A DNA stretch of 64,000 nucleotides from Bacteroidaceae bacterium (GTDB lineage Bacteria > Bacteroidota > Bacteroidia > Bacteroidales > Barnesiellaceae_A). This document shows positions 15,004 to 44,200 of the stretch, piece after piece. Each line of letters begins with the position of its first letter. Within the stretch, counting starts at the first letter, position 1. The DNA lies in the NCBI GenBank assembly GCA_017481745.1, contig JAFUOV010000009.1:54603-118602 (forward strand), read 5' to 3'. The notes below the pieces were generated by a model. It saw only the letters and a list, made by a program, of their open reading frames with translations, did not search any database and was not told the origin of the DNA. The translations under genes were made by a program, and so were the position numbers.

Positions 15004-15007
15004 TAGT

Positions 15008-18101: not shown

Positions 18102-18104
18102 TAT

Positions 18105-19091: not shown

Positions 19092-19124
19092 GCTGCTTTG
19101 TAAAAAGGAAGAAGGTAGGTCGAT

Positions 19125-20291: not shown

Positions 20292-20404
20292 GATGCTAAT
20301 ATATTCTGCACTGCCCGGTGAAATGAGGATTATGCAAGCCCCACAGAGCGAAGGCGTTCATAAATTAATTATGAAAAGTTTGTAATTAATTATTCAGGAC
20401 AATA

Positions 20405-21547: not shown

Positions 21548-21568
21548 CAGCACTGCCTATTATCTGTT

Positions 21569-22459: not shown

Positions 22460-22473
22460 AACTACACAGCACC

Positions 22474-23643: not shown

Positions 23644-23654
23644 CGCTATAAATT

Positions 23655-24323: not shown

Positions 24324-24326
24324 CAC

Positions 24327-25181: not shown

Positions 25182-25207
25182 AATAGTTTACTAAATAAAA
25201 AATAAAT

Positions 25208-26146
25208 ATGAAAAACAGAATCGCAATTATAGCAGTATATTTTGGTCCGTTACCTAATTATTTACCCCTATGGTTAAAATCTTGTGAGTATAATGATTTG
25301 ATCGATTTTTATTTAATAACAGACCAAAATGTAGCACAACATCCATCTAATGTCATAGTAAAACCTATGACATTAGGAGAGATGAAAAATCGTGCTCAAT
25401 CAATCTTACAATTTGATGTTAGTTTGGAAAGACCTTATAAATGTTGTGATTTTAAAGTAATATATGGATTGATTTTTCAAGATTATGTAAAGGATTATGA
25501 TTATTGGGGACATTGTGATCTTGATTTAATATGGGGAGATTTGTCATATTTTTTCCAAAAGTACAATTTGTATAATTATGACAAATTCCTCGTTCTAGGG
25601 CATCTATCTTTATATAGAAATACAGATGATGTTAATAATGCCTTTAGAAAAGACGGTTGTTCAAAAGATTTTCATACAATTTTTTCTAATGATAAATCTT
25701 ATGGTTTCGATGAGAAAAATGGAATTTATAGAATAATGCTTCATAATAATTATAAGGTCTTTGATAGAGATATTTATATAGACATTACTACATTGTATAA
25801 GCGTTATAGATGTAATGCAGAATGTTATAATTATCAAACATATTATTGGAAAGAAGGAAAAATATATTATATATATTATGATGAAAAAGTTTTGAATACC
25901 AAAGAATATATGTATATCCATTTCCAAAAAAGACCTAATTATGAACTGACGTTTGATTGTAAAGATGTAAAAGAATTTTATATTACAAATAGTGGCTTTT
26001 ACATCAAAGATAAAGAACCCTCTATACCCGAAATAAATAAGTTAAACCCTTATAGAGGAAAGTTGTATGAAATGATAGAAAAGACCTATAATGTATATAA
26101 GAAGCGTATAATGTTAAAATTAAAATCGTGGAAAATACTACACTAA
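25208..26146 (+). CDS. Conserved polysaccharide-locus protein, putative glycosyltransferase (DUF6625-like)
   Basis: 312 aa. IAIIAVYFGPLPNYLPLWLKSCEYNDLIDFYLITDQ and YWGHCDLDLIWGDL resemble a family recurrent in Bacteroidales CPS loci. The function is unproven. Confidence 0.5.
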   Translation: MKNRIAIIAVYFGPLPNYLPLWLKSCEYNDLIDFYLITDQNVAQHPSNVIVKPMTLGEMKNRAQSILQFDVSLERPYKCCDFKVIYGLIFQDYVKDYDYWGHCDLDLIWGDLSYFFQKYNLYNYDKFLVLGHLSLYRNTDDVNNAFRKDGCSKDFHTIFSNDKSYGFDEKNGIYRIMLHNNYKVFDRDIYIDITTLYKRYRCNAECYNYQTYYWKEGKIYYIYYDEKVLNTKEYMYIHFQKRPNYELTFDCKDVKEFYITNSGFYIKDKEPSIPEINKLNPYRGKLYEMIEKTYNVYKKRIMLKLKSWKILH

Positions 26147-27606
26147 AGTCTTTGACGGCTCAAGCAACAAAATGGTCTTCTGTGACAGAGATTGCAAGCC
26201 GTCTAGTTTTACCATTTATTAATATGGTGTTAGCAAGATTGTTAACACCAGAAGCTTTTGGTGTAATAGCAACAGTCAACATGATTGTTAGTTTTGCAGA
26301 GATATTTACAGATGCTGGCTTTCAAAAATATCTTGTGCAACATGATTTTGAAGATGAAGAAGAACTTGACAATAATACGAATGTAGCATTTTGGACAAAT
26401 CTCTTAATATCCGTTGTTTTATGGCTATTGATATTTTTTTTCTCAGAGCAACTTGCTATATTAGTAGGGAATCCGGGTTTAGGAAATGTTATAGTTATTG
26501 CATCTTTAGTTTTGCCGGTTAATGCTTTCAGTAGTATTCAGATGGCTCGCTATAAAAGAGATTGGAATTTTAAGTCATTGTTTTATGTGCGTTTAGTGTC
26601 TATATGTGTTCCTTTATTTGTAACATTGCCATTAGCATATATAACAAAAAGTTTCTGGGCGTTAGTTATTGGAACATTATCAGGAGCTGTTGTAAATGCT
26701 GTCATTTTAACTTGCAGGTCTCGATGGAAACCTAAGTTGTTTTTTTCAATAAAGAAATTGAAAGAAATGTTTTCATACAGTTGGTGGATAATGATGGAGT
26801 CTATATCAACGTGGATGACCTCCTATTTCGATACTTTTATTGTTGGTATATTTTTATCTACTTTTTATGTCGGTATATATAAGACATCAATGATAACAGT
26901 AAACCAAATTATATCTTTAATAACATCGGCAACATCGATGCCATTATTTGTGGCACTTTCACGCTTAAAAAATGATAGGGATGCGTTAATAGATATGTAT
27001 AATAATTATATGCAAGCAGTTGCATTCTTCGTTTTCCCATTAAGTATTGGAATTTGGATTTATAGAGATTTTATAACATTTATTCTTCTTGGTTCACAAT
27101 GGAAAGAAGCTGCTGATTTTATTGGCTTATGGGGTTTATTGTCATCTATTAGCATTGTTCTAGGAACTTATGCAAATGGTTTGTATAATGCTATTGGAAA
27201 AACTTATATCTCATTCTTAGTAGCATTAATAAATATTTTATATATGATACCTATTTTATTTTGGTCCGCGCCGTTAGGTTTTGAGACCTTGTATATATCA
27301 CGTTCCAGTGTGAGGATTTTGTTTGTTATTATACAATTATTAATGATGAGTATTTATATAAAATATCCTATCTTTAGTTTAATAAAAAAACTTTTACCAA
27401 TAATTCCTTCCACAGTATTAATGGCAATTGTTGCGCTATTGTTAAATATGATTAGTCAAGCTTATTTGTGGAATTTTGTATGTATATTTATATGTATATT
27501 TGTATATTTTACATCAATGTTTATAATAAATAAAAAATTACTTAATAATTCATTACAGACACTAGGTGTAAATATTAAGATGTTAAAAAAGAGTAATCAT
27601 AGCTAA
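26128..27606 (+). CDS. wzx: Wzx-type oligosaccharide flippase (MOP superfamily)
   Basis: 492 aa with about 12-14 TM segments and an N-terminal ...LARLLTPEAFGVIA motif. The GTG start overlaps the upstream gene by 19 nt. Confidence 0.85.
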   Translation: MENTTLKSLTAQATKWSSVTEIASRLVLPFINMVLARLLTPEAFGVIATVNMIVSFAEIFTDAGFQKYLVQHDFEDEEELDNNTNVAFWTNLLISVVLWLLIFFFSEQLAILVGNPGLGNVIVIASLVLPVNAFSSIQMARYKRDWNFKSLFYVRLVSICVPLFVTLPLAYITKSFWALVIGTLSGAVVNAVILTCRSRWKPKLFFSIKKLKEMFSYSWWIMMESISTWMTSYFDTFIVGIFLSTFYVGIYKTSMITVNQIISLITSATSMPLFVALSRLKNDRDALIDMYNNYMQAVAFFVFPLSIGIWIYRDFITFILLGSQWKEAADFIGLWGLLSSISIVLGTYANGLYNAIGKTYISFLVALINILYMIPILFWSAPLGFETLYISRSSVRILFVIIQLLMMSIYIKYPIFSLIKKLLPIIPSTVLMAIVALLLNMISQAYLWNFVCIFICIFVYFTSMFIINKKLLNNSLQTLGVNIKMLKKSNHS

Positions 27607-27804
27607 TATAGAATTGTTTGTTTTAACCATAAAATTAAATTCTATATATTATTTTTATAAAACCATTAGCAATTTCTTTTGGGATTATATCAATGACCAT
27701 AATGCTTATAATTAAATAATTATTTGAATTAAACCGTTTTAATAGCTATGTGCATAACCTATAATGTAATAGCAATATCAATATAAACTATATTTATAAT
27801 AAAG

Positions 27805-28779
27805 ATGTTAATAAATAAATTGAAAAAGTTTTCTTACTATTTGATACACGACATTAATAAGATTAAATTGTATTTATTATATAAATTCAATTGGATTTTT
27901 AGTAATGATGAGATATATATCAAATATATTTATAAGCTTCGTATGAAACAAGAATTGAATCTTTGTAAACCTAGAACATTCGGAGAGAAACTTCAATGGT
28001 TAAAACTCTATAATCGGAATCCCGAATATACACGGATGGTTGATAAATATGAAGTTAAAAAATACGTAGCTGATATAATTGGAGAAGAATATGTTATACC
28101 AACATTAGGTGTATGGGATAAGGTTGAAGATATTGATTATGATGCTTTACCCAATCAGTTTGTGTTGAAATCTACTCATGATAGTGGAGGGATAGTAATA
28201 TGTAAAAACAAGAGTTTGTTAGATCGTGTTTATGTAAAGAAGAAAATTGGCAAATCTTTGAAACGAAATTATTATAATGAAAAAAGAGAATGGCCTTATA
28301 AGTATGTAAAACGGAGAATAATTGCAGAACAGTTTTTGTCTGACAGTGTACATCAAGATCTTATAGATTATAAATTCTTTTGTTTTAATGGTCAACCTCG
28401 ATATTGTCAAGTAATTAGAGATAGAAGTACTAACGAAACAATTGATTTTTATGATATGCAGTGGAATCATATGCCATTTGTTGGTCTTAATCCTATTGCT
28501 CCAAATGAATATAATCCGATTGTTAAAAATGGTCTTAATCCAGTTACAAGACCAAGTTGTCTAGATAATATGATTGAAATATGTGAAAAATTGGCTAAAA
28601 ATATTCCTTTTGTGAGAATTGATTTGTATATAATAAATAATAAAATATATTTTGGAGAAATAACATTTTTCCCTGCTAGTGGTTTCGGCGTTTTTACACC
28701 AGATAATTGGAATTTGGTTTTGGGAGATATGATAAGTTTGCCCAATATAAAAAATACTGAGGTAGAGTTTATAAAATAA
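27805..28779 (+). CDS. ATP-grasp fold amidoligase, TupA-like (3 of 4)
   Basis: 324 aa. LNLCKPRTFGEKLQWLKLYNRNPEYT, FVLKSTHDSGGIVICK, DYKFFCFNG and YFGEITFFPASG. Confidence 0.85.
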   Translation: MLINKLKKFSYYLIHDINKIKLYLLYKFNWIFSNDEIYIKYIYKLRMKQELNLCKPRTFGEKLQWLKLYNRNPEYTRMVDKYEVKKYVADIIGEEYVIPTLGVWDKVEDIDYDALPNQFVLKSTHDSGGIVICKNKSLLDRVYVKKKIGKSLKRNYYNEKREWPYKYVKRRIIAEQFLSDSVHQDLIDYKFFCFNGQPRYCQVIRDRSTNETIDFYDMQWNHMPFVGLNPIAPNEYNPIVKNGLNPVTRPSCLDNMIEICEKLAKNIPFVRIDLYIINNKIYFGEITFFPASGFGVFTPDNWNLVLGDMISLPNIKNTEVEFIK

Positions 28780-28900
28780 AAACGAAATAATGTATTATTA
28801 GATTCTTATTGTATTACTTTCGTTATAAGTAGTAATCCAATAAAGATAAATAATAATAGATTTGTATAATTACCTTTAATAATATTGTTATTAGTAATAT

Positions 28901-29815
28901 ATGGAAAGTTTTAAAAAATTTTTGTTTTATTTTAAATTTCATCCCAAGCAAATACTTATATCATTGTTATGTAAAATATCATTTTTATTTTCTGACGTGA
29001 TATACCTAAAGTTATTATATTTTTTTTCAATAGGAAAATCTTTAAATCTCAATAACCCTCAAACTTTTGCTGAAAAGTTACAATGGCTTAAGTTATATAA
29101 TCGCCGACCAGAATATACAAAGATGGTAGACAAATATGAGGCAAAGAGATATGTCGCAGATTTGATAGGTGTTAAATATATTATACCGACTTTAGGAGTA
29201 TGGGATAAAGTTGAAGATATTGATTTTGATACATTGCCAAATCAATTTGTCTTAAAATGCACGCACGATAGCGGTGGCGTTATAATATGTAAAAATAAGG
29301 CAGAATTAGATATAGTTGCTGCTAAAAAAAAATTGCGCAAAGCTCTTAAGCGAAGATATTATCTTCAGAATAGAGAATATCCATATAAAAATGTCGTACC
29401 TCGTATTATTGCAGAACAATATATGGTGGATGAGAGTGGCTATGAACTGAAAGACTATAAAGTTTTTTGTTTTAATGGTGTTGCTAAGTATTGTCAGGTT
29501 GTTGAAGGTAGAAATAGCATAATGACTGCCGATTTTTATGATAGAGAGTGGCTACATCTTCCTTTACATCAACCACAAAGATATCCTTTTGCAGAAGTGC
29601 TTCATAAAGAGCCATCTTGCGTTAATGATTTATGGAAGTGTGCTGAGAAATTAGCAGTAAATATTCCTTTTGTTAGAGTAGATTTTTATATTGTAAATAA
29701 TAAGATATACTTTGGAGAACTTACCTTTTTCCCTGCTAGTGGCATTGGAGGTATTAAACCCAGAGAGTGGGATAATATTTGGGGGAGTTATATAGTGTTG
29801 CCGGATAAAGTATAA
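28901..29815 (+). CDS. ATP-grasp fold amidoligase, TupA-like (4 of 4); tandem paralog of 27805-28779
   Basis: 304 aa. LNLNNPQTFAEKLQWLKLYNRRPEYT, FVLKCTHDSGGVIICK, DYKVFCFNG and YFGELTFFPASG. Confidence 0.85.
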   Translation: MESFKKFLFYFKFHPKQILISLLCKISFLFSDVIYLKLLYFFSIGKSLNLNNPQTFAEKLQWLKLYNRRPEYTKMVDKYEAKRYVADLIGVKYIIPTLGVWDKVEDIDFDTLPNQFVLKCTHDSGGVIICKNKAELDIVAAKKKLRKALKRRYYLQNREYPYKNVVPRIIAEQYMVDESGYELKDYKVFCFNGVAKYCQVVEGRNSIMTADFYDREWLHLPLHQPQRYPFAEVLHKEPSCVNDLWKCAEKLAVNIPFVRVDFYIVNNKIYFGELTFFPASGIGGIKPREWDNIWGSYIVLPDKV

Positions 29816-29829
29816 ATAAAGATTATGCT

Positions 29830-31014
29830 ATGAAACAATATTTGAATGCAAGCGTATTCTATATTTTATTATGGTCTTTGTATTACTTACAAGGAACCTT
29901 GTATGCAGAAGGAAGTATAATTTCACAACTAATATTGGCTATATTATTAGTCTATTCTTTCTTTTGTTTCTGTAAAGTTGTAATCTCCTATAAGATGCCA
30001 GTGCTTTTAAAAAGTCTTAGTTTCTTTTTGGTAATTATGACTATATATGGAGTTTATTTTATGTTATCACCTCATCAAATTTATGATGAAAATAATTTGT
30101 CTAGTGCTGTTTCAAAGACTCTTTATTTAAAAAATCTGTATGTTTCCATTCTTCCTATATATGTAATGTATTATTTTGCAAAGAAAGATTTGTTGTCAGA
30201 GGAAGTTGTAAAAATTATTTTCATTATATTATTGATTACTTATATTATACTGTTTCAAAGGGTTGAGCAAACGGAAAAACTTAAATTATTAGCCAATGAT
30301 TTAAATGATGATAATGTGGTTAATAATATATCGTATCATTTTCTTAAGTTATTTCCCTTATTGTTCTTTTGGAATAGTAAACCAATATTACAATTTCTAA
30401 TAGCTGCCATATTATTGTTTTTCGTTCTTTCTGGTTTTAAGAGAGGGGCCATTGTGATTAGCGTGGTGTGTTTTATGTGGTTTTTTTATAAAATTTTCAA
30501 AGACATTCGCGGACGTCAACGTTTTTATATTGTTTTGTTGACCATTTTGTTTATGGTTATTGGAGGGACATATGTATATATGTTATATGATTCTAATCAA
30601 TTCTTTCAATATAGAATGGAGCAAACGATTCAAGGTGATTATAGTGCTAGAGATGTAATATATTTAACTCTATGGAATAACTTTCAACAAGAGCTCTCTT
30701 TATTAAAAGTGTTGTTTGGTAATGGCGTTTATCATACTATTAGTTTAACAGGAACGTTTGCACATAATGATTGGTTAGAGTTACTTACTAATCAAGGATT
30801 GATTGGAGTTCTTGCCTATTTATTATTTTTCGTTTATTTCGTGCGTACAATATATTTGAATAGAAGAAATAATTTGTTTGTAGCTGTTATGGGTATGTGT
30901 TTTATTATTATATTTTTATCATCATTTTACTCAATGTCGTATGAAATGATTGGATTAGCTCCGGCATTAGGTATTGGATATTGTATGTGTCAAATTTCAA
31001 ATAAAAAGATATGA
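29830..31014 (+). CDS. wzy: O-antigen/capsule repeat-unit polymerase (Wzy, O-antigen ligase-like domain)
   Basis: 394 aa with about 10 TM segments. FAHNDWLELLTNQGLIGVLAYLLFF is typical of the Wzy_C domain. Confidence 0.75.
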   Translation: MKQYLNASVFYILLWSLYYLQGTLYAEGSIISQLILAILLVYSFFCFCKVVISYKMPVLLKSLSFFLVIMTIYGVYFMLSPHQIYDENNLSSAVSKTLYLKNLYVSILPIYVMYYFAKKDLLSEEVVKIIFIILLITYIILFQRVEQTEKLKLLANDLNDDNVVNNISYHFLKLFPLLFFWNSKPILQFLIAAILLFFVLSGFKRGAIVISVVCFMWFFYKIFKDIRGRQRFYIVLLTILFMVIGGTYVYMLYDSNQFFQYRMEQTIQGDYSARDVIYLTLWNNFQQELSLLKVLFGNGVYHTISLTGTFAHNDWLELLTNQGLIGVLAYLLFFVYFVRTIYLNRRNNLFVAVMGMCFIIIFLSSFYSMSYEMIGLAPALGIGYCMCQISNKKI

Positions 31015-33208: not shown

Positions 33209-34255
33209 ATGTCAATCTTCAAAGACAAAGTCCTGTTGATTACAGGCGGTACGGGCAGTTTTGGTAACGCCGTGCTCAATCGCTTCTTGCGTACTGATAT
33301 TAAGGAAATTCGTGTGTTCTCGCGCGACGAGAAGAAACAAGACGATATGCGCCACGACTTTCAGGCGCGTATGCCCGAGGTGGCTCATAAAATAAAATTC
33401 TTCATTGGCGACGTGCGCGACTTGCAGTCTTGTCGCAATGCCATGCCGGGTGTCGATTACATCTTCCACGCTGCTGCGCTCAAGCAAGTGCCGTCGTGCG
33501 AGTTCTTCCCGATGGAAGCTGTGAAAACCAACGTGATAGGTACCGACAACATCCTCACTGCCGCTATCGAGCATAAGGTGAAGTCGGTCATCTGCCTCTC
33601 TACCGACAAGGCCGCTTATCCCATCAATGCCATGGGTATAACAAAGGCTATCGAGGAGAAAATTGCTGTGGCAAAGTCGCGCTACTCGGGCGAAACAAAG
33701 ATATGCTGTACTCGTTATGGCAACGTTATGTGTTCGCGCGGTTCGGTTATTCCTTTGTGGATCGACCAGATACGCAACGGCAACCCCATTACGCTCACCG
33801 AGCCTTCGATGACTCGCTTCATTATGTCGCTCGAAGAGGCTGTCGACCTCGTGTTATTTGCCTTCGAGCACGGTCAGAATGGCGATATCCTTGTACAAAA
33901 GGCTCCTGCCTGCACCATTCAAACACAAGCCGAGGCTGTGTGCGAACTGTTTGGTGGCAAGAAAGAGGATATCAAGGTGATAGGTATTCGCCATGGTGAG
34001 AAGATGTACGAAACACTGCTTACCAACGAAGAGTGTGCCAAGGCGGAGGATATGGGCGACTTCTATCGCGTGCCTGCCGACAATCGTGGCTTGAATTACG
34101 ACAAATTCTTCAAAGAGGGTGAGGCTGAGCGCAACTTGCTCACCGAGTTCAACTCGAACAACACTCGTATGCTCACCGTTGAGGAGACCAAAGCCAAGAT
34201 TGCTGCTTTGACTTATATTCAGAACGAACTCTCGGGCGTAGGAAATTTGGTGTAG
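33209..34255 (+). CDS. fnlA: UDP-N-acetylglucosamine 4,6-dehydratase/5-epimerase (FnlA/CapE)
   Basis: 348 aa. It is near-colinear with S. aureus CapE as I remember it: KVLLITGGTGSFGNAV...IRVFSRDEKKQDDM...AAALKQVPSCEFFP.EAVKTN..GT...STDKAAYPINAMG..K...E...RYGNVM.SRGSVIPL. Confidence 0.93.
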   Translation: MSIFKDKVLLITGGTGSFGNAVLNRFLRTDIKEIRVFSRDEKKQDDMRHDFQARMPEVAHKIKFFIGDVRDLQSCRNAMPGVDYIFHAAALKQVPSCEFFPMEAVKTNVIGTDNILTAAIEHKVKSVICLSTDKAAYPINAMGITKAIEEKIAVAKSRYSGETKICCTRYGNVMCSRGSVIPLWIDQIRNGNPITLTEPSMTRFIMSLEEAVDLVLFAFEHGQNGDILVQKAPACTIQTQAEAVCELFGGKKEDIKVIGIRHGEKMYETLLTNEECAKAEDMGDFYRVPADNRGLNYDKFFKEGEAERNLLTEFNSNNTRMLTVEETKAKIAALTYIQNELSGVGNLV

Positions 34256-34322: not shown

Positions 34323-34688
34323 ATGAGTGATTTCTCGTTCCGTAAACTGAATGCTTATATTATTAGTAAGGAGTTGGTCAAGTCCGTTTATCGTTTAGCT
34401 TCAACATTCCCATCTAATGAGCAATATGCATTGACAACGCAATTACGCAGGGCTGTTATTTCTATTCCCTCTAATCTCGCAGAAGGGATGGGACGAATAT
34501 CCTGTAAAGAGCAGATCCATTTTTTAGAAATAGCCTATGGCTCATTAATGGAGGTACTATGCCAATTGGAAATCGCACTCGAACTTCAATATATTAATAA
34601 AAGTCAATTCACAGATGTAGAATTAAAGATTATCGAAGTTGCACGATTATTATCAGGATTACGTGCATCAATAACAAAAAAACTCTAA
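34323..34688 (+). CDS. Four-helix-bundle protein (formerly the 23S rRNA intervening-sequence protein family)
   Basis: 121 aa. FRKLNAY...EL.K.VYRL...FP..EQYALT.QLRRA..SIPSNLAEG.GR....E...FL.IA.GSL.E...Q is the family signature. Confidence 0.85.
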   Translation: MSDFSFRKLNAYIISKELVKSVYRLASTFPSNEQYALTTQLRRAVISIPSNLAEGMGRISCKEQIHFLEIAYGSLMEVLCQLEIALELQYINKSQFTDVELKIIEVARLLSGLRASITKKL

Positions 34689-34755: not shown

Positions 34756-35958
34756 ATGTATATACTAATTACCGGTGCCAAAGGCTTTGTTGGGCGCAAT
34801 CTTGTGGCACAACTCAACAATATCAAGGACGGCAAGGCAAAGTTCTATGGCGATGTTGTGGTCGATGAAGTGTTCGAGTACGACATCGACTCTACTCCCG
34901 ACGAGCTCGACCGCTATTGCCGCGAAGCCGACTTTGTGTTCAACCTTGCAGGGGTCAATCGCCCTCAAAATCCCGACGAGTTTATGCAAGGCAATTTCGG
35001 CTTTGCATCCACACTGCTCGACACCTTGCGCAAGCACAACAATACCTGCCCCGTAATGCTCAGCTCGTCTATCCAAGCCACCCTCGCCGGACGTTTCGGT
35101 ACGAGCGAATATGGCAAGAGCAAGAAGGCAGGCGAGGAGTTGTTCTTCGACTATGCTGCCACCACCGGTGCGCGAGTGTTGGTATATCGTTTTCCCAATC
35201 TCTTTGGCAAATGGTGCCGTCCCAACTACAACTCGGCAGTGGCTACCTTCTGCAATAACATTGCCAACGACTTGCCCATTACCGTCAACGACCGTTCAAC
35301 CGAGCTCGAGTTGCTCTACATCGACGACCTCGTTGACGAAATGATAGCCGCCATACGGGGCGACGAGCATCATTGCGAGTTTGAGGGTGTCGATACCATC
35401 CTTACCCCCCAAGGTCGTTACTGTGCAGTACCCGTAACGCACAAAATCACTTTAGGCGAGATTGTCGACCTGCTTGACGAGTTCCACGCCCAGCCGCAAT
35501 CGCTCACCATCCCCGACATTCCCGAAGGCTCGTTTGCCAAGAAACTCTACTCGACATACCTTTCGTATCTGCCCAAGGAGAAAGTGGCTTTCCCCTTGAA
35601 GATGAACATCGACGCTCGCGGCAGCTTCACCGAGCTATTGCGCACACGCAATAACGGGCAAGTAAGCATCAACATATCCAAGCCCGGCATCACCAAGGGA
35701 CAACATTGGCACAACACCAAGTGGGAGTTCTTCATGGTCGTAGCAGGTCGCGCACTCATTCAGCAACGCCGCATCGACAGCGACGAAGTGCTCAACTTTG
35801 AGGTCAGTGGCGACAACATTCAAGCCGTACACATGTTACCCGGCTATACGCACAACATTATCAACCTCTCCGACACCGACGACCTCGTTACCGTAATGTG
35901 GTGCAACGAATGTTTCGACCCCAATCGCCCCGATACATACTTCCTGCCGGTAGAGTAA
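34756..35958 (+). CDS. fnlB: FnlB/CapF bifunctional reductase/epimerase (SDR domain plus C-terminal cupin)
   Basis: 400 aa. ITGAKGFVGRNL, HLAGVNRP-like LAGVNRPQ, LSSSIQAT, PNLFGKWCRPNYNSAVATFC, GSFTELL, ISKPGITKGQHWHNTK and MWCNECFDPNRPDTYF. Confidence 0.9.
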   Translation: MYILITGAKGFVGRNLVAQLNNIKDGKAKFYGDVVVDEVFEYDIDSTPDELDRYCREADFVFNLAGVNRPQNPDEFMQGNFGFASTLLDTLRKHNNTCPVMLSSSIQATLAGRFGTSEYGKSKKAGEELFFDYAATTGARVLVYRFPNLFGKWCRPNYNSAVATFCNNIANDLPITVNDRSTELELLYIDDLVDEMIAAIRGDEHHCEFEGVDTILTPQGRYCAVPVTHKITLGEIVDLLDEFHAQPQSLTIPDIPEGSFAKKLYSTYLSYLPKEKVAFPLKMNIDARGSFTELLRTRNNGQVSINISKPGITKGQHWHNTKWEFFMVVAGRALIQQRRIDSDEVLNFEVSGDNIQAVHMLPGYTHNIINLSDTDDLVTVMWCNECFDPNRPDTYFLPVE

Positions 35959-36069: not shown

Positions 36070-37254
36070 ATGAACATTAAACTCGACTATTCGACTGTAA
36101 GTTTCAAGAACGACGGTCGCCTCAAACTGCTCATCATCGTAGGAACTCGCCCCGAGATTATACGCCTCGCAGCAGTCATTAACAAATGTCGCAAATACTT
36201 CGACACCATATTGGCACACACAGGTCAGAACTACGACTACAACCTCAACGGCGTATTTTTCAGAGATCTCAAACTCGCCGACCCCGAGGTATACATGGAT
36301 GCCGTAGGCGACGACCTTGGCGCAACCATGGGCAACATCATCAACGCATCGTACAAACTGATGGTGCAAGTCAAGCCCGATGCCGTACTCGTACTTGGCG
36401 ACACCAACAGCTGCCTGTCGGTAATCGGCGCCAAACGCCTACACATACCCATCTTCCACATGGAAGCCGGTAACCGCTGCTTCGACGAATGTCTGCCCGA
36501 AGAGACCAACCGTCGCATCGTCGACATCATCTCCGACGTCAACCTCTGCTACTCCGAGCACGCACGTCGTTACCTCAACGCATCGGGCGTAGCCAAAGAA
36601 CGCACCTACGTAACCGGTTCGCCCATGGCAGAAGTCTTGCACGAAAACCTCGCCGACATCGAGGCAAGCGACATACACGCACGACTCGGTCTCGAAAAAG
36701 GTCGATACATACTCCTCTCGGCACACCGCGAAGAAAATATCGACACCGAGCGCAACTTCACAAGCCTCTTCACAGCCATCAACCGCATGGCAGAGAAGTA
36801 CGATATGCCCATACTCTATTCGTGCCACCCACGCAGTCGCAACCGATTGGCAGCAAGTGGGTTTAAACTCGATCCACGCGTCATCCAACACGAGCCTCTC
36901 GGCTTCCACGACTACAACTGCTTGCAGATGAATGCCTTTGCAGTAGTAAGCGATAGCGGAACACTCCCCGAAGAAAGCTCATTCTTCACATCCGTAGGAC
37001 ACTCATTCCCCGCAGTGTGCATACGCACCAGCACCGAGCGCCCCGAGGCCCTCGACAAAGGCTGCTTCATCCTCGCCGGCATCGACGAGCACTCACTGCT
37101 CCAAGCCGTCGACACAGCCGTAGAGATGGTACGCAACTACGACAACGGTATACCCGTACCCAACTACACCGACGAAAACGTATCAACCAAAGTCGTAAAA
37201 CTCATACAATCCTACACCGGCGTTGTCAACAAAATGGTGTGGAGAAAATTCTAA
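36070..37254 (+). CDS. fnlC: UDP-N-acetylglucosamine/UDP-L-TalNAc 2-epimerase, non-hydrolysing (FnlC/CapG)
   Basis: 394 aa. LKLLIIVGTRPEIIRLA, HTGQNYDYNL, GDTNS, HMEAGNRCFD and PEE.NRRIVD. Confidence 0.9.
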   Translation: MNIKLDYSTVSFKNDGRLKLLIIVGTRPEIIRLAAVINKCRKYFDTILAHTGQNYDYNLNGVFFRDLKLADPEVYMDAVGDDLGATMGNIINASYKLMVQVKPDAVLVLGDTNSCLSVIGAKRLHIPIFHMEAGNRCFDECLPEETNRRIVDIISDVNLCYSEHARRYLNASGVAKERTYVTGSPMAEVLHENLADIEASDIHARLGLEKGRYILLSAHREENIDTERNFTSLFTAINRMAEKYDMPILYSCHPRSRNRLAASGFKLDPRVIQHEPLGFHDYNCLQMNAFAVVSDSGTLPEESSFFTSVGHSFPAVCIRTSTERPEALDKGCFILAGIDEHSLLQAVDTAVEMVRNYDNGIPVPNYTDENVSTKVVKLIQSYTGVVNKMVWRKF

Positions 37255-37265: not shown

Positions 37266-38477
37266 ATGAATAACAAACTTCGTAACGTTCCATTCTCGCC
37301 GCCCGATATGAGTGAATGCGAGATTGCTGAAGTAAGTGAAGCACTACGCTCTGGATGGATTACCACCGGACCACGTACCAAAGAGTTTGAGAAACAAATC
37401 TCTGATTATTGTCACACCGATAAAGCGGTGTGCCTAAACTCGGCAACAGCTTGTATGGAGCTTATATTGCGAGTTCTTGGTGTTGGTCCCGGCGATGAAG
37501 TCATAACATCGGCATATACATATACAGCAACAGCAAGTGTTACTTGTCACGTTGGTGCCAAAGTAGTGATGGTCGATACTGCTCCTAACTCCTTTGAAAT
37601 GGATTATGACAAACTTGCCGATGCTATAACCGAACGTACGAAAGTTATTCTGCCGGTCGATTTAGGTGGAGTAGTGTGCGATTACGATAAGATATATGCT
37701 GCAGTAGAGAGTCGTAAACATCTGTTCCGTCCGTCAAACGATATACAACGCGCATACGGTAGGGTAGTAGTGTTGGCCGATGCAGCACACGCCTTCGGAG
37801 CGCAATGGCACGGCAAGATGTGTGGAGAAATAGCCGATTTTACCTCATTCTCGTTCCACGCAGTGAAGAATCTTACTACTGCCGAAGGTGGTGCGCTTAC
37901 TTGGCGTACTCACGAAGGGGTTGATAATGAATGGTTGTATAAGCAGTTCCAACTCTTTTCGTTGCACGGACAAAATAAGGATGCACTTGCCAAAACAAAA
38001 TTGGGTGCGTGGGAGTATGATATTGTTGCCCCCAACTACAAGTGCAATATGACCGATATTATGGCCGCCATAGGCTTGGCTCAATTCAAGCGTTATCCCG
38101 ATATGCTCCGTCGTCGCCACGATATTATTCGCAAATATAATGATGCGTTGAAAGGTCATAATGTGCAGACATTGACACATGTTGGCGACAACCACACATC
38201 GAGTGGACACCTCTACTTGGTACGTTTGTTGGATTGTGATGTGGAAGAACGAAATCGCATCATTGAGCAAATGGCAGAGCGTGGCATTGCCTGCAATGTA
38301 CACTATAAGCCACTGCCTATGATGACGGCATATAAAGCATTAGGTTTCGACATAGCCAACTATCCCAATGCATATAACCAATATCGCAATGAAGTAACCC
38401 TGCCGTTACACACTCGCCTCACCGATGAGGATGTTGAGTATGTCATCAGCAATTTTGTAGAAGTAATAAGTCAATAA
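37266..38477 (+). CDS. DegT/DnrJ/EryC1-family PLP-dependent sugar 4-aminotransferase (PglE/WcfR-like)
   Basis: 403 aa from ATG 37266. FSPPDMSECEIAEVSEALRSGWITTGPRTKEFE, and SFHAVKNLTTAEGG carries the PLP lysine. The longer track ORF from 37017 is an out-of-context extension overlapping fnlC. Confidence 0.9.
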   Translation: MNNKLRNVPFSPPDMSECEIAEVSEALRSGWITTGPRTKEFEKQISDYCHTDKAVCLNSATACMELILRVLGVGPGDEVITSAYTYTATASVTCHVGAKVVMVDTAPNSFEMDYDKLADAITERTKVILPVDLGGVVCDYDKIYAAVESRKHLFRPSNDIQRAYGRVVVLADAAHAFGAQWHGKMCGEIADFTSFSFHAVKNLTTAEGGALTWRTHEGVDNEWLYKQFQLFSLHGQNKDALAKTKLGAWEYDIVAPNYKCNMTDIMAAIGLAQFKRYPDMLRRRHDIIRKYNDALKGHNVQTLTHVGDNHTSSGHLYLVRLLDCDVEERNRIIEQMAERGIACNVHYKPLPMMTAYKALGFDIANYPNAYNQYRNEVTLPLHTRLTDEDVEYVISNFVEVISQ

Positions 38478-38492
38478 ATTTTTATCGAGGCG

Positions 38493-39689
38493 ATGAAAAC
38501 AAAAAAAATATTGATGCTGGGTGGTGGTTTCCTGCAATGTTTTGTTATTAAAAAAGCAAAACAATTGGGCTACGAAGTTCACGTTCTCGATGCTAATCCA
38601 CAAGCCGAAGGTTTCAAGTATGCCGATGCTTATGCCGTTATCAATATTGTTGATGAAGAGGCTTGCTTGGCGTACGCTCGTAGTGAGAATGTTGATGGTG
38701 TGCTTACTGCTGCTACCGACTATAGCGTGCTTGCTATGAGTCGTATCGCTTCTGAGTTGCATCTGCCGGGTATCAATTACTCATCGGCAAAACTCATAAA
38801 AAACAAAGCCGAAGTGCGCAGATGTCTTTTCGATGCTCAAGCAGATGATACAGGATATTCTTATGAAATATCCTCATCGCAAGAGGCTCTATCAGTTCTA
38901 CCGGAAGTAAAATTCCCCGTAATGGTCAAGCCTTGTGACGGATCGGGTAGTAGAGGTGCATCGCGTGTCGATAATCCCGATGAGTTTGTTACTGCGTGTG
39001 AGTATGCTATGCAAGGATCTATAACACATCGTGCAGTAGCCGAGCCTTTTGTGGTTGGTCGAGAGTATGGTGTTGAATCTTTTGTAAACCAAGGCGAAAT
39101 ACATATCTTGGCAGTAATGCAAAAAGATATGACTATGCCACCCTACTATGCCGAACTGGGGCACGCTATTCCTTCGGGCTTATCGGTCGAAATGGAGGCA
39201 AAAGTAAAAGAGTGTGTACGTCGTGCCTTGATAGCACTTGGGGTCAATCACGGCTCGGTCAATATGGACTTGCTTATTGATAGCGACGGTGGTGTACACA
39301 TAGTTGATATAGGTGCGCGTATGGGTGGTAATCTCATAGGTTCGCATATAATACCTTTGGGAACAGGTATAGATTATATGGCCAATATGATAAAGGCTGC
39401 AATGAGTGATGAGGTCGATTTTACTCCTCAAACAGAGTCGGCACCCGTAGCCACCAAACTATTGGCCTTGACTCCGGGAGTTGTAGCATCCTTACCCAAT
39501 TTCGATAATATTGCTACGACCTACAAAGTGACAATAGAACACCACTTGCACCAAGGCGATACAATTACCCCATATCGTACCAACCTCGATGGTTGTGGAT
39601 ATGTGGTTGCTACAGGTCGTGATGTTTATGAGGCGATTGATACAGCAAGAATGGTTCGTGAAATTATTGACTGCACTATTATACGATAA
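38493..39689 (+). CDS. ATP-grasp carboxylate-amine ligase (classical pre-ATP-grasp plus ATP-grasp architecture)
   Basis: 398 aa. KKILMLGGGFLQ...KQLGYEVHVLD, FPVMVKPCDGSGSRGASRV and HIVDIGARMGGN. Confidence 0.8.
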   Translation: MKTKKILMLGGGFLQCFVIKKAKQLGYEVHVLDANPQAEGFKYADAYAVINIVDEEACLAYARSENVDGVLTAATDYSVLAMSRIASELHLPGINYSSAKLIKNKAEVRRCLFDAQADDTGYSYEISSSQEALSVLPEVKFPVMVKPCDGSGSRGASRVDNPDEFVTACEYAMQGSITHRAVAEPFVVGREYGVESFVNQGEIHILAVMQKDMTMPPYYAELGHAIPSGLSVEMEAKVKECVRRALIALGVNHGSVNMDLLIDSDGGVHIVDIGARMGGNLIGSHIIPLGTGIDYMANMIKAAMSDEVDFTPQTESAPVATKLLALTPGVVASLPNFDNIATTYKVTIEHHLHQGDTITPYRTNLDGCGYVVATGRDVYEAIDTARMVREIIDCTIIR

Positions 39690-39691
39690 CT

Positions 39692-40882
39692 ATGAAGAAA
39701 ATTTTGATTATCGGTGCCGGTGATTATCAAGTACCGGCTATTAAGCGGGTGCGACAAATGGGCTATGCTGCATACTGTGTCGATTATAAAGAGGGACAGC
39801 CGGGCTTTGAATATGCCGATGGATACAAAATTATAGATGTAAAAGACAAAGAGGCCTGCTTGGCGTTTGCTCAAGAACTATCCATTGATGGTGTACTTAC
39901 TTGGGGGGCAACTCTTACGTTACCTACGGTAAGTTACATTGGTGAGAGAATGAATCTCCCTTGTATGCCTATGGCAACATCGGAAATCTCTATGAGTAAG
40001 TATCAAATAAGAAAGGCATTAGATGATTTTGGCCTAAATAGTGCAGGACGCACATTTGAGTTAAATAGTCAAGAAGAGGCTAAAAATCGAGAATACTCAT
40101 TGCCGTTTGTGGTTAAGCCTACCGATGGATCGGGAAGCAAAGGCGTATGTATAGTAAAAGAATCGAGCGAAATAGAAAATGCTATACAATATGCATTTGA
40201 AGGCGCACGCAATAATCAGATATATGTTGAGCCGTATATCGATGGTGAAGAATTTACGGTAGAAGCCTATGTTTGCAATGGTAAATGTTACATATACTCT
40301 ATTGTGAAAACAGAGTTCTATTGGACAGAAAACTATCCTATATACAAGCAAACAACATATTTGGGTATAACTCCCGAAGTAGAGCAGGCAATAACTCTTG
40401 AAGTTGAAAAAGCCGTAAAGGCATTAAATGTTACTTGGGGACCTATAAACTTCGATTTGATAGTATCTGCCGACAATAACAAGCCGTATATTATCGATAT
40501 TGGTATCCGTAATGGACAAAATCTTATTGCATCGCACATAGTACCCTATTCGCGTGGTGTTGATGAGTTAGACAATAGTATCAATCTCTGCTTGGGCATC
40601 GAAACCGATGCTATTCCTAAAAAGAAGAAATACATATCTTCTCGACTGCTTATTTATAATCCCGGAGTAATAAAGCAGATAAAGGATGTTAATCAAGTAA
40701 TTGGTACAAATAACATCGTTGACGTAATTATGCGTAAGAAAGAGGGAGATATACTCCCACCATATCAAACAAAGTCGGATATATGTGGCTGGGTGCTTAC
40801 TGAAGGTGATACTCCCGATGCTGCAAGCCAATATGCCGATGCTGCTTGGGAAACTCTGCAAAACTATATTATCATTGAATAA
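39692..40882 (+). CDS. ATP-grasp carboxylate-amine ligase; tandem paralog of 38493-39689
   Basis: 396 aa. KKILIIGAGDYQ...RQMGYAAYCVD, LPFVVKPTDGSGSKGVCIV and YIIDIGIRNGQN. Confidence 0.8.
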   Translation: MKKILIIGAGDYQVPAIKRVRQMGYAAYCVDYKEGQPGFEYADGYKIIDVKDKEACLAFAQELSIDGVLTWGATLTLPTVSYIGERMNLPCMPMATSEISMSKYQIRKALDDFGLNSAGRTFELNSQEEAKNREYSLPFVVKPTDGSGSKGVCIVKESSEIENAIQYAFEGARNNQIYVEPYIDGEEFTVEAYVCNGKCYIYSIVKTEFYWTENYPIYKQTTYLGITPEVEQAITLEVEKAVKALNVTWGPINFDLIVSADNNKPYIIDIGIRNGQNLIASHIVPYSRGVDELDNSINLCLGIETDAIPKKKKYISSRLLIYNPGVIKQIKDVNQVIGTNNIVDVIMRKKEGDILPPYQTKSDICGWVLTEGDTPDAASQYADAAWETLQNYIIIE

Positions 40883-40893
40883 ATAGCAATATT

Positions 40894-41481
40894 ATGTATC
40901 AAAATTTTATCAAACCCATCTGTGATTGGATAATTGCTTTAATTGCATTTCCCTTCTTTTGTATCATTTGGATATGTGTTGCAATAGCCATTAAATTGGA
41001 AGATGGTGGTCCTGTATTTTATATGGCCGAGCGTATAGGAAAAAACAGTAAGAAACTGATGATGTTTAAGTTTCGCTCTATGAAAGTGAATGCCGAAAAC
41101 ATAACAAACCCCGATGGCAGTTCGTTTAATGCAAAAGATGATCCTCGTGTGACCAAGGTGGGTAAATTCTTGCGCGAAACAAGCCTCGATGAAACAGCCC
41201 AAGTATTGAATATGCTTAAAGGCGAAATGAGCCTTGTCGGCCCTCGTGCAAGTGGATGGTCGGCATTGGAAAATTATCAACCCGATGAAGTTGATAAGAT
41301 GAAAGTTCGCCCCGGTATTACAGGTTATACTCAAGCATATTATCGCAACAGTATAGGTGTACGAGATAAACGTCTTAAAGATGCTTGGTATGCCAATAAC
41401 ATATCATTTATGCTCGATGTTAAAATTTTCTTTAAAACAATACAAACAGTATTGAAACACAATAATATTTATACGAATTAA
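40894..41481 (+). CDS. Small (PglC/WcfS-like) undecaprenyl-phosphate sugar-phosphate transferase; initiating enzyme
   Basis: 195 aa. One re-entrant N-terminal helix, then GGPVFY...R.G.....F...KFRSM, DPRVTKVG.FLR..SLDE..Q..N.LKGEMSLVGPR. Confidence 0.9.
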   Translation: MYQNFIKPICDWIIALIAFPFFCIIWICVAIAIKLEDGGPVFYMAERIGKNSKKLMMFKFRSMKVNAENITNPDGSSFNAKDDPRVTKVGKFLRETSLDETAQVLNMLKGEMSLVGPRASGWSALENYQPDEVDKMKVRPGITGYTQAYYRNSIGVRDKRLKDAWYANNISFMLDVKIFFKTIQTVLKHNNIYTN

Positions 41482-41482
41482 T

Positions 41483-42559
41483 ATGGCTACAAGTAAAAAA
41501 TTACGCGCAATATATGATGGTTTCTTTGAAGGATTGGAAACTTCTTGTGCAAATCTAATATCAAATATAACTGAATATTCAAGGTTAAAAAAATATTGCA
41601 AAACAAAACCGACAAAGGAATATAAGAAGAAGGTTGGCGATTTTTGGAAGAAATATAAGTCAATTTCGCCTTTATGGGGGTGGTATTATGCTTCTCAAAA
41701 TGGAATAGAAGATCCTCGTTATATTCCTAATACAATGTACTATGCAAAAATAGATCAGCATTTCAACAATAGAAAACTCGGTTGTGGATTTAATGATAAG
41801 AATTATTATTCTCGTATTTTCTATGGTATTAATCAGCCCAAAACGTTGGTGAGAAATGTTAATGGAATCTTGTTAGATGAGAATTATAAACTAATAACAA
41901 CTCAACAGGCTCTTGATATAGTTTTACAAGAAAAAGAGGTGGTTTGCAAGCCCTCTTTAGAAACAGGATCAGGAAGGAATGTTTGTTTTTGGAAAACTAA
42001 TTCGCAAGAAGAAATAATAAAATCTTTTATTAAAGGTGAGGAGAAAAATTATATTATTCAAGGTGTAATAGAGCAGCATCCTAAATTAAAGGAGATACAT
42101 AAAGATTCAATTAATACATTGCGTATTGTATCTTTATTGATGAAAGATGGTGTGTATATTTTATCTTCTAATCTGCGTATGGGTACTGGTAGTAGTCGTG
42201 TTGATAATGTAACAGGTGGAGGTATCAGTTGTGGCGTAAATTCAGATGGCTCTTTAAAAGATTATGCAACAGATTATTATACGGGAGAGAAATTCTATCA
42301 ACATCCCCAAGGCACTATTTTTAAAAATTTAACTGTGCCATCATATAACAAAGCGATAGAACTTGTTATTCAAGCCCACTCTATTATACCCCATTTCCGT
42401 TTGGTTTCTTGGGATATTGCTATTGATATTGACGGAGAACCTTTGTTGATAGAAGCTAATATGCGTAAAGGTGGCATAAATTTAAATCAGTTTAATAATG
42501 GCCCTCTTTTTGGAGATATGACCGAATGTGTTTTGGACGAGGTTTTTGGTAAAAAATAG
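41483..42559 (+). CDS. ATP-grasp protein, sugar-transfer-associated type (ATPgrasp_ST-like)
   Basis: 358 aa. VVCKPSLETGSGRNV, SINTLRIVS, SSRVDNVTGGGISCGVNSDG and SWDIAIDIDGEPLLIEANMRKGG. It starts 2 nt after the initiating transferase. Confidence 0.7.
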   Translation: MATSKKLRAIYDGFFEGLETSCANLISNITEYSRLKKYCKTKPTKEYKKKVGDFWKKYKSISPLWGWYYASQNGIEDPRYIPNTMYYAKIDQHFNNRKLGCGFNDKNYYSRIFYGINQPKTLVRNVNGILLDENYKLITTQQALDIVLQEKEVVCKPSLETGSGRNVCFWKTNSQEEIIKSFIKGEEKNYIIQGVIEQHPKLKEIHKDSINTLRIVSLLMKDGVYILSSNLRMGTGSSRVDNVTGGGISCGVNSDGSLKDYATDYYTGEKFYQHPQGTIFKNLTVPSYNKAIELVIQAHSIIPHFRLVSWDIAIDIDGEPLLIEANMRKGGINLNQFNNGPLFGDMTECVLDEVFGKK

Positions 42560-42562
42560 TCT

Positions 42563-43807
42563 ATGAAGATTTTATATTTAAAACCTTATCATTATCCTGA
42601 GGAACTATCAAGTCCGTACTTGGGGATACAAACTCAAGAAGCCTTTGCTCGTGAGGGGTATAAGATGGAACTCTTTACTCCTACACCATCGCGTGGGTTG
42701 GATAAAGAAACTGTTAAGAAATATCGTAAAATTCGTGTAGAAGAGAAACTGAATGGACTGTTGACAATACGTCGTTTCCCTTTGTATGCCGAGGGTAAAA
42801 ATCCGATATTGCGTGCTTTGCGATATTTTATTCAGTGTGTTGAACTCTTCTTTATTGGTGTTTTCAATAAGCACGCTAAAGATGCTGATGTGATAATGGT
42901 TTCAAGTACTCCTCCCATTATAGGACCTACGGCTGCTCTGATAAAGAAGGTGCGTCATATTCCCATTGTTTATAACTTGCAAGACATTTTCCCTGACTCG
43001 TTGGTAGGTGCCGGTATGACACGCAAAGGCTCTCTGCTGTGGAAGATTGGGCGTGCTATTGAGGACTTTACCTATCGCAATTGCGATAAAATTATTGTTA
43101 TTTCAGAAGACTTCAAGCGCAACATTATGGCAAAAGGTGTGCCTGAGGAGAAGATTGAAGTAATATATAATTGGGTTGATGAAAATGCCGTTGTACCTAT
43201 AGCCAAAGATGACAATATATTGTATGATGAATTTTCCTTGCCTAAGGATAAGTTTTATGTAGTATATGCCGGTAATTTTGGCAATGCTCAAAACATTGAT
43301 GTGATAATTCGTGCAGCAGAACAACTCAAAGAACATCAAGATATTCAATTTCTGCTGTTTGGTACGGGGGGACTTATTGATGACTTTAAGAAACTTGTTT
43401 CAGACCTAAATCTCGACAATGTACGATTCTTCCCATTGCAACCTTATAATCGCGTATCTTATGTTTATAGTTTGGGTAGTGTGGGTATAGTATCGTGCAA
43501 GAAAGGTATTGGCAAGGGGGCTATGCCGAGCAAGACGTGGAGTATTATGTCGGCAGGAACTCCGGTAGTTGCCAATTATGATACCGATACCGATTTGCAG
43601 CGTATTATAACATCTCATAATCTTGGCGTATTTTCCGAGGCGGACAATGTACAAGAGCTAACAGATGCTATTCTTTATATGTATAATAATCCTTCTCTCT
43701 GCGAGGAGTATGGTCGTAATGCGCGTCGATATGTAGAGGAAAACCTTACTAAAGACGTAGGTACAAGCAAATATATTGAGGTTGTAAAATCTGTCGTTAA
43801 CAAGTAA
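42563..43807 (+). CDS. wbuB: Glycosyltransferase family 4, WbuB-like (putative L-FucNAc transferase)
   Basis: 414 aa. MKILYL.PYH.PE..S, LRALRYF and the GT-B C-terminal half. It co-occurs with fnlABC and wbuC, as in known L-FucNAc loci. Confidence 0.75.
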   Translation: MKILYLKPYHYPEELSSPYLGIQTQEAFAREGYKMELFTPTPSRGLDKETVKKYRKIRVEEKLNGLLTIRRFPLYAEGKNPILRALRYFIQCVELFFIGVFNKHAKDADVIMVSSTPPIIGPTAALIKKVRHIPIVYNLQDIFPDSLVGAGMTRKGSLLWKIGRAIEDFTYRNCDKIIVISEDFKRNIMAKGVPEEKIEVIYNWVDENAVVPIAKDDNILYDEFSLPKDKFYVVYAGNFGNAQNIDVIIRAAEQLKEHQDIQFLLFGTGGLIDDFKKLVSDLNLDNVRFFPLQPYNRVSYVYSLGSVGIVSCKKGIGKGAMPSKTWSIMSAGTPVVANYDTDTDLQRIITSHNLGVFSEADNVQELTDAILYMYNNPSLCEEYGRNARRYVEENLTKDVGTSKYIEVVKSVVNK

Positions 43808-43813: not shown

Positions 43814-44200
43814 ATGCTCATTGACAATAATTTGCTAAATATGGTTACTGCGCAGGCGCGGGAGTCGGCGCGGTTGCGGATGAATTACAATCTGCACCAT
43901 TCGCTCGATGCCAAGGCGCAGCGTTTGCTCAATGCGCTTGAGCCGGGTACGGTGTTGCCCATACATCGTCATCGACACACTGCCGAGACGTATGTGTTGT
44001 TGCGAGGTCGCATTGATGTTATGTTCTATAACGATTGCCGCGAGGAGGTATGCCGTTATGCTCTCGACCCCTTGCAGGGCAATTATGGCGTGCACATTCC
44101 CGCGGGGCAGTGGCACACGCTCGAGGTAAAAGAGTCTGCTGTCATTCTTGAGGTGAAAGACGGTCCTTATGCACCTCTTGCTCCCGAAGATATGTTGTAA
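43814..44200 (+). CDS. wbuC: WbuC-family cupin-fold metalloprotein
   Basis: 128 aa. ARLRMNYNLH, LNALEPGTVLPIHRHRHTAETYVLLRG and GQWHTLEV. Confidence 0.8.
   Translation: MLIDNNLLNMVTAQARESARLRMNYNLHHSLDAKAQRLLNALEPGTVLPIHRHRHTAETYVLLRGRIDVMFYNDCREEVCRYALDPLQGNYGVHIPAGQWHTLEVKESAVILEVKDGPYAPLAPEDML

Follow-up and report, generated by a model that had tools for sequence, protein, structure and literature searches.

The capsule-type locus described here raises the question of what ATP-grasp ligases are doing between a sugar 4-aminotransferase and the phosphoglycosyl transferase (PGT) with which a polysaccharide repeat unit is started. The locus lies in a stretch of 64,000 nucleotides (hereafter the window) from a Bacteroidaceae bacterium (GenBank assembly GCA_017481745.1, contig JAFUOV010000009.1, positions 54,603 to 118,602), in which five closely spaced genes at 37266-42559 encode an aminotransferase, two L-amino-acid-ligase-type (LAL-type) ATP-grasp enzymes, referred to as GrA and GrB, a small PGT and a third ATP-grasp ligase, ST2. 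The analysis indicates that the cassette is probably responsible for the synthesis and transfer of the sugar with which the capsule repeat unit begins, with GrA as the proposed first N-acylating ligase on the 4-amino group of UDP-2-acetamido-4-amino-2,4,6-trideoxygalactose (UDP-FucNAc4N, the nucleotide form of AATGal) and GrB as the enzyme adding a second residue.

All five genes are on the forward strand. They comprise a DegT-family aminotransferase of 403 aa (37266-38477; Spr1654 orthologue, WcfR-type), GrA of 398 aa (38493-39689) and its paralogue GrB of 396 aa (39692-40882), each with the Pfam domains ATP-grasp_4 and LAL_C2, a small monotopic PGT of 195 aa (40894-41481; Pfam Bac_transf alone, residues 7-188) and ST2 of 358 aa (41483-42559; the 'sugar-transfer associated' family ATPgrasp_ST, PF14397, 144 bits), with intergenic gaps of 15, 2, 11 and 1 nt. 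An initial annotation, made from the sequence, had described this order of an aminotransferase, two ATP-grasp genes, a 195-aa PGT and a further ATP-grasp gene, and both the order and the limits of the block proved exact. It had also described the block as devoid of a PglD-type acetyltransferase, and none was found among the Pfam-annotated genes of 37266-42559; nor was a PglD/NeuD-type enzyme found in the capsule locus, the sole hexapeptide acetyltransferase of which (23655-24323) is Vat/CatB/WbbJ-like and, with 54.6 bits, falls far short of the 160.8 bits that the NeuD/PglB/VioB model requires.

When species-representative genomes were scanned, GrA orthologues at 50-72% identity were identified in 63 loci, which span the Bacteroidales, many Clostridia, Tetragenococcus, Planococcus, Catenibacillus, Acetobacterium and others. 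The genes of these loci were annotated against the window proteins, and the denominators given here are the loci with enough sequence on the relevant side. The comparison of gene order that the initial annotation had suggested could thus be made: a Spr1654-type aminotransferase (at least 50% identity) is found in 54/56 loci, immediately upstream of GrA in 47 of them, and a small PGT lies downstream of GrA/GrB in 56/58. Other components are less regular, with a WbuB-like GT4 glycosyltransferase in 32/58 loci, a PglF-like long dehydratase upstream of the aminotransferase in 16/46 and Ugd-like genes in just about a dozen (our own count from the locus table), while the later glycosyltransferases and the genes for the second sugar differ among the loci. 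The sole constant partner of GrA is the initiating 4-amino sugar together with its transferase. Since the 4-amino group is usually the sole nucleophile that such a sugar offers to an ATP-grasp ligase, the constancy of the initiating sugar amid varying downstream genes suggests that GrA acts on this group. In seven Bacillales genomes (L096-L102), an aminotransferase 55-68% identical to that of the window is accompanied by a PGT, an LAL-type ATP-grasp and then a GT4. The Bacillales ATP-grasps beside such aminotransferase/PGT pairs (370 Bacillales genomes sampled) share only 28-31% identity with GrA and make up a second clade of ligases associated with that pair.

The slot beside GrA was compared in the 57 loci with room on both sides, and holds a 158-aa GNAT in 27, GrB in 13, both in two and neither in 15. 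Strict mutual exclusion of the GNAT and GrB is ruled out by the two loci that carry both (L036 and L042). The 'neither' loci that were examined differ in their slot gene, which encodes a double GNAT of 306-317 aa, in Planococcus a formyltransferase, or a DegT-fold protein. GrB, where present (15/57), is always immediately downstream of GrA. The partners in this slot all modify amines, which is what would be expected if the product of GrA carried a new free amine, and the acids joined by GrA and GrB are therefore likely to be amino acids. In a reciprocal search of metagenome contigs, seeded with a 9-sequence GNAT alignment (a 23-sequence alignment was too diverse), GrA follows the GNAT in 38 of the 41 loci with room among the 52 recovered, and no aminotransferase-GNAT-PGT set without GrA was seen among them. 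A GNAT search of 401 genomes of one clostridial order returned the query genome only, the module being sparse there or missed by the prefilter. In-frame GNAT-GrA fusions, each with a different type of GNAT (L037:9515-11185, 556 aa; L039:5024-6835, 603 aa), occur in Congzhengia and Faecousia metagenome-assembled genomes. Acylation of the sugar by GrA accounts for every variant seen and for these fusions. The initial annotation had placed the ligases in the position expected of an acetyltransferase. The proposed acylating role is supported, whereas the placement has to be given up, as a GNAT lies beside GrA in 29/57 loci, GrB fills the GNAT slot, and no acetyltransferase is expected in an AATGal-type module. 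In some loci with GrA only, a conserved protein of 361-371 aa with a weak DegT-fold match lies between GrA and the PGT (L021:5626-6723, L066:11197-12312, L023:6564-7649) and may modify the attached acid.

The remainder of the capsule-type locus (11869-44200; 32 kb on one strand, with the aminotransferase/ligase block at its 3' end) could offer the ligases a different set of substrates. It opens with a NusG/UpxY-like gene, includes Ugd, a UDP-GlcA 4-epimerase (SSS motif; 372 bits to 5U4Q), Wzx, Wzy and several glycosyltransferases, and encodes eight ATP-grasp enzymes, four TupA-like, two ATPgrasp_ST and two LAL-type. The six other than GrA and GrB (four TupA-like, ST1 and ST2), along with Ugd and the epimerase, point to heavy amide decoration of uronic acids, apart from the cassette. 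GrA, GrB and ST2 might likewise amidate carboxyl groups elsewhere in the repeat, such as those of GalA/GlcA or ManNAcA, with amino acids and leave a plain AATGal with a free 4-amine like that of B. fragilis PSA and pneumococcal teichoic acid, in keeping with the known AATGal arrangement of an aminotransferase-PGT pair without an acylating enzyme (PMC11626204; PMC5936713). We consider this unlikely, because across the 63 loci GrA is conserved together with the aminotransferase and the PGT, between which it is usually placed, and not with uronic-acid genes; Ugd-like genes occur in about 12 loci and the second sugar varies; the GNAT-GrA fusions and the alternation of formyltransferase, GNAT and GrB are also hard to explain in this way.

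GrA and GrB have the domain make-up of L-amino-acid ligases. Both exceed the cut-offs of PF13535 and PF18603 and keep the ATP-grasp motifs, K146, the DGSGS loop, E184, D272, R276 and N280 being invariant in the alignment; GrB is 33% identical to GrA. By sequence, the nearest structures are that of the L-amino-acid ligase BL00235 (PDB 3VOT) and 4DIM, which carries the annotation phosphoribosylglycinamide synthetase and for which no functional study is known to us; GrA scores 98.6 bits against the former and 106 bits against the latter, and GrB matches BL00235 at 90.1 bits. Because GrA and GrB fall in separate clades of the tree, the GrB clade with a support of 1.0, their tandem is of long standing and conserved and did not arise by local duplication. 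The ATP-grasp_4 core with LAL_C2 is shared with L-amino-acid ligases such as BL00235, YwfE/BacD and RizA, and this architecture, along with the similarity to BL00235, is what might be expected of ligases that make a free small molecule, for example a dipeptide, with no connection to the glycan beyond the neighbouring position of the genes. Of the alternatives considered this is the least likely, and a very improbable one, given the almost invariable association with the aminotransferase and PGT genes in different phyla, the operon-tight spacing of the genes and the lack of exporter or resistance genes in the block. The substrates of LALs are two free amino acids, whereas GrA and GrB have a fixed nucleotide-sugar/PGT context and a proposed sugar amine as acceptor, and their similarity to the LALs is low; the genomic context argues for a sugar-linked amine as substrate over the synthesis of dipeptides from free amino acids.

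The sugar itself can be predicted from the aminotransferase, which matches PDB 6EWJ at 549.8 bits over 394 residues without gaps (about 64% identity, counted from the printed alignment) and retains the SFHAVKN lysine motif. The entry 6EWJ is Spr1654, the Streptococcus pneumoniae enzyme predicted to make AATGal (PMC5936713). Judged by this match the window enzyme is a clear Spr1654 orthologue. Scores against the chains 2FN6, which we take to be PseC, 1O61, presumably PglE, and WbpE are just 88-131 bits. Because the Spr1654 match is strong and the others are low, the expected product is the galacto-configured UDP-FucNAc4N (AATGal) and neither bacillosamine nor an L-altro sugar. The initial annotation had termed the enzyme PglE/WcfR-like; the Spr1654/WcfR side of the term is upheld by the 549.8 bits to 6EWJ, and the PglE side is dropped in view of the 88-131 bits. 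The 195-aa PGT, previously described as PglC/WcfS-like, is similarly retained as a small monotopic transferase, predicted to start the repeat unit, and not as a PglC orthologue, for it scores 112-124 bits against the structures of both PglC and WbaP and is equally distant from the two.

Variants of the aminotransferase were noticed in other loci. In three of them (L059:2973-5096, L061:7501-9525, L068:7800-9977), an N-terminal membrane domain of about 290 aa, to which Pfam assigns no domain and which by eye resembles the N-terminus of PglF/CapD, is fused to a Spr1654-type aminotransferase, and these fusions suggest a membrane-tethered complex of dehydratase, aminotransferase and PGT. A protein of 866 aa (L013:15043-17643) combines a Spr1654-type aminotransferase with a second DegT-type domain.

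The third ligase could also be the one that acylates the 4-amine. ST2 is encoded as a separate polypeptide, its ATG following the TAA stop of the PGT by one base; its Pfam family is named for an association with sugar transferases; the Neisseria protein PglB2 likewise pairs a PGT with an ATP-grasp; and GrA and GrB are nearest to ligases of free L-amino acids such as BL00235. In such a scheme the split-PglB2-like ST2 would acylate the amine, and GrA and GrB would build the acyl donor, for instance a dipeptide or an N-acyl amino acid, beforehand from free metabolites or extend the chain afterwards. The distribution of ST2 makes this improbable. Orthologues (at least 44% identity) occur in just 18/58 GrA loci, so that GrA modules work without ST2, while the four other ST2 contexts sampled are all inside GrA modules, which suggests that ST2 depends on GrA and not the reverse. 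No PGT-ST2 fusion was found among the 120 best ST2 homologues, and the HAD phosphatase that would complete the scheme has no match among the capsule-locus open reading frames (ORFs) scanned with Pfam. As it is seen inside GrA modules and yet is absent from most of them, ST2 is read as an optional further modifier and not as the primary N-acylating enzyme. Downstream of ST2 there is often a PGA_cap (CapA-like) gene (L183/L184, L016, L019, L035, L061), an order that mirrors the ST1-PGA_cap pair at 19125-21547 of the window.

With GrA as the acylating enzyme, the pathway would run as follows. A 4-keto sugar, supplied by a PglF-type enzyme in most related loci and with the FnlA-like enzyme alone visible here, would be converted by the Spr1654/WcfR-type aminotransferase to UDP-FucNAc4N. 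GrA would form the acyl phosphate of a carboxylic acid, which is most likely an amino acid, and link the acid to the 4-amino group of the sugar, and GrB would put a second residue on the free amine of the first, an amine that in relatives would be capped by a GNAT, a double GNAT or a formyltransferase instead. The small PGT would then move the acylated sugar phosphate onto undecaprenyl phosphate, ST2 may add or amidate a further group, and a WbuB-like GT4 would attach the next sugar, probably L-FucNAc from FnlABC. The analysis itself establishes the gene content, the orthology of the aminotransferase to Spr1654, the conserved synteny and the fusions, whereas we infer all of the chemistry that follows the aminotransferase, the identity of the acids and the stage, UDP- or lipid-linked, at which they are ligated.

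The source of the keto sugar was sought in the whole assembly (2.15 Mb, 90.9% complete). A PF02719 search gave one true match, the FnlA/CapE-like UDP-GlcNAc 4,6-dehydratase of 348 aa encoded at 33209-34255 on the forward strand (PF02719 and PF08485), and tblastn with 17 PglF-like proteins from related loci matched this gene alone. The absence of a PglF-type dehydratase from the locus, as described in the initial annotation, is thus matched by its absence from this 90.9%-complete assembly. The annotation had also named an inverting FnlA as the only dehydratase of the locus; the gene is indeed single, and its product is presumed to be inverting from homology only. Its 498.7 bits fall below the 730-bit cut-off of the TIGR04130 FnlA equivalog model, and the TDK...MxxxK motif, common to FnlA-like and PglF-like proteins, does not separate inverting from retaining enzymes. 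A long-form dehydratase is accessory in the genus, being present in 6/13 same-genus genomes and absent from 7/13, and one same-genus genome, 99% complete, has no Polysacc_synt_2 gene at all. Six other Bacteroidales genomes with the module each have at least one long-form dehydratase elsewhere, and in several Bacteroidales loci the aminotransferase adjoins fnlA. One of two explanations is that a PglF-type gene exists but lies in the part of the genome absent from the 91%-complete assembly. The other, that the FnlA-like enzyme supplies the 4-keto sugar for the aminotransferase, is plausible because a short soluble enzyme, Pdeg, yields the retaining product. Pdeg of Bacillus cereus is 46-47% identical to PseB/FlaA1 and 41% to CapE, and nevertheless produces the D-xylo-4-hexulose of a retaining enzyme, which is passed on to Pat and Pyl (PMC4514872).

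Three further candidates for the missing dehydratase, or clues to it, were set aside. The ORF at 15721-16830 carries an SSS motif, not TDE/TDK, and with its 372 bits to 5U4Q is the UDP-GlcA 4-epimerase; the two short-chain dehydrogenase/reductase genes that follow the aminotransferase of Bacteroides thetaiotaomicron are gmd and fcl; and locus L012, which might have served as a same-species clue, belongs to a genome (G001, identical with G010) that has a PglF-type gene but differs from the source genome. The 47-kb PglF-bearing contig of G010 has no nucleotide similarity to the source genome and is hence uninformative on its PglF.

Replacement of a trideoxyhexose acetyltransferase by an ATP-grasp enzyme is known in principle. 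In the UDP-yelosamine pathway of B. cereus ATCC 14579 (Pdeg, Pat and Pyl; Hwang et al., J Biol Chem 2014, as cited in PMC11626204 and PMC8987622), the ATP-grasp Pyl adds 2-oxoglutarate. The pathway comprises, as proposed here, a dehydratase, a 4-aminotransferase to UDP-4-amino-FucNAc and an ATP-grasp joining a carboxylic acid to the 4-amino group, encoded by genes that adjoin a small monotopic PGT, and a short Pdeg that is PseB/CapE-like and yet retaining (PMC4514872) parallels the FnlA-only genome of the present study. The single ligase and the 2-oxoglutarate of that pathway contrast with two LAL-type paralogues plus an ATPgrasp_ST enzyme here and with amine-capping partners in relatives that point to amino-acid residues. 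ATP-grasp acylation of the 4-amine of the initiating sugar, as the initial annotation had envisaged it, is thus supported by the cross-phylum synteny, by the capping partner or GrB, by the GNAT-GrA fusions and by the Pyl precedent.

A second precedent is PglB2 of Neisseria, reportedly treated by Chamot-Rooke et al. in PNAS in 2007 in connection with the glyceramido-acetamido-trideoxyhexose (GATDH) pathway of pilin glycosylation. In PglB2 an ATP-grasp domain replaces the acetyltransferase domain beside the priming PGT, the sugar being glyceramido-acetamido-trideoxyhexose. The two systems share an ATP-grasp by the priming PGT and a non-acetyl acyl group, glyceroyl in Neisseria, on the 4-amine of a trideoxyhexose. 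They differ in that PglB2 is a PGT-ATP-grasp fusion, whereas separate genes, three ligases and no HAD phosphatase were found here, and in that the Neisseria pathway employs a PglC/PglE-like aminotransferase in place of a galacto-type, Spr1654-like one. The WcfR/WcfS pair of Bacteroides fragilis and Spr1654/Spr1655 of S. pneumoniae resemble the present system in having an aminotransferase (orthologous to Spr1654) with a small PGT and no PglD-type acetyltransferase, the label 'WcfR-type' used here resting on the comparison with Spr1654. In those systems the 4-amine is free and no ligases intervene between aminotransferase and PGT, unlike here, and a PglF/UngD/Spr0092-type dehydratase is used, of which none was found in this 91%-complete assembly. 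The literature that was searched yielded no description of the GrA/GrB family, of its tandem two-ligase form, of swappable caps or of a spread through gut Bacteroidales and Clostridia.

Several points weigh against acylation of the 4-amine by GrA. The eight ATP-grasps of the locus, together with Ugd and the UDP-GlcA 4-epimerase, mean that uronic-acid amidation certainly occurs, and it might involve GrA and GrB. The position of ST2 directly after the PGT is a PglB2-like arrangement, and ST2 could itself act on the 4-amine. The GNAT and formyltransferase partners could cap the sugar 4-amino group directly, in the manner of WecD-type enzymes, and so leave GrA without the proposed nucleophile in the loci concerned. 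The required retaining dehydratase was not found in the 90.9%-complete assembly. Finally, the likeness of GrA to Pyl is one of context and proposed chemistry, and that of GrA and ST2 to PglB2 one of arrangement and proposed role.

The acylation of AATGal by GrA may form part of a wider scheme, which taken as a whole we regard as possible but doubtful. This 'peptidyl-AATGal' pathway would be mobile, combinatorial and common to gut Bacteroidales and Clostridia: up to three ligases (GrA, GrB and ST2) would elongate the 4-amine of the reducing-end sugar with a short chain of amino acids made without ribosomes, interchangeable caps (an acetyl or formyl group, or no cap) would decide between a capped and a free amine and hence a zwitterionic capsule, and in this genome the FnlA-like dehydratase would feed both the L-FucNAc and the 4-amino-sugar branches. 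The free amine of AATGal makes the polysaccharide A of B. fragilis zwitterionic and immunomodulatory. A cassette that extends or caps this amine would, if real, be a major unrecognised source of capsule diversity in gut commensals, with a bearing on phage receptors, immune recognition and serotyping, and would enlarge the very small group of ATP-grasp enzymes known to act on nucleotide sugars. The module offers the monotopic-PGT field a candidate new class of UDP-sugar substrate, and the alternation of GNAT, formyltransferase and second ligase gives enzymologists a combinatorial series ready-made by nature. The proposal is readily testable in a cultured species, B. thetaiotaomicron, in which the two ligases also occur in tandem: the complete genome CP072224.1 has the GrA-GrB pair with a PGT, a GT4 and an aminotransferase, to which that of the window is 76% identical, and the GrB homologue of this species (P0163) appears in 337 indexed blocks of the assembly collection.

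The base composition of the cassette differs from that of its surroundings. The GC content at third codon positions (GC3) is 0.24-0.42 in the six genes from the aminotransferase to the WbuB-like GT4 (0.345 in the latter) and 0.59-0.67 in fnlA/B/C and wbuC, with 0.66-0.67 in the FnlB- and FnlC-like genes and 0.589 in WbuC. Because of this difference from the flanking fnl and wbuC genes, the region 37266-43807 appears to be a horizontally mobile six-gene cassette inserted in a high-GC fnl/wbu frame, the canonical arrangement being fnlABC-wbuB-wbuC. The order aminotransferase-GrA-GrB-PGT-ST2-GT4 is also found in clostridial loci (L181, L016 and L050). A contig of 4880 bp from another genome of the same genus (locus L012 of G010) carries fnlB-fnlC-aminotransferase-GrA-GrB with proteins 95-99% identical to those of the window, a near-identity due either to recent transfer or to a mis-binned contig.

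The flanking genes, on the forward strand as well, are the FnlB-like (34756-35958; Pfam Epimerase and Polysacc_synt_C) and FnlC-like (36070-37254; Epimerase_2) genes of the UDP-L-FucNAc pathway upstream and, downstream, the WbuB-like GT4 glycosyltransferase (42563-43807; Pfam GT4/GT1, 182 bits to the WcaI family) and a WbuC-family cupin (43814-44200; 145.6 bits to TIGR04366 against a 42-bit cut-off). Elsewhere in the locus, the TupA-like genes start at 21569, 24327, 27805 and 28901 and the ATPgrasp_ST genes at 19125 and 41483. The region 12517-31014 also encodes an AlaDH/PNT-fold gene (18105) and a PGA_cap gene (20405), in addition to Ugd and the UDP-GlcA 4-epimerase, and a low-GC (0.36) gene for a four-helix-bundle protein of 121 aa (TIGR02436) lies at 34323-34688, between fnlA and fnlB.

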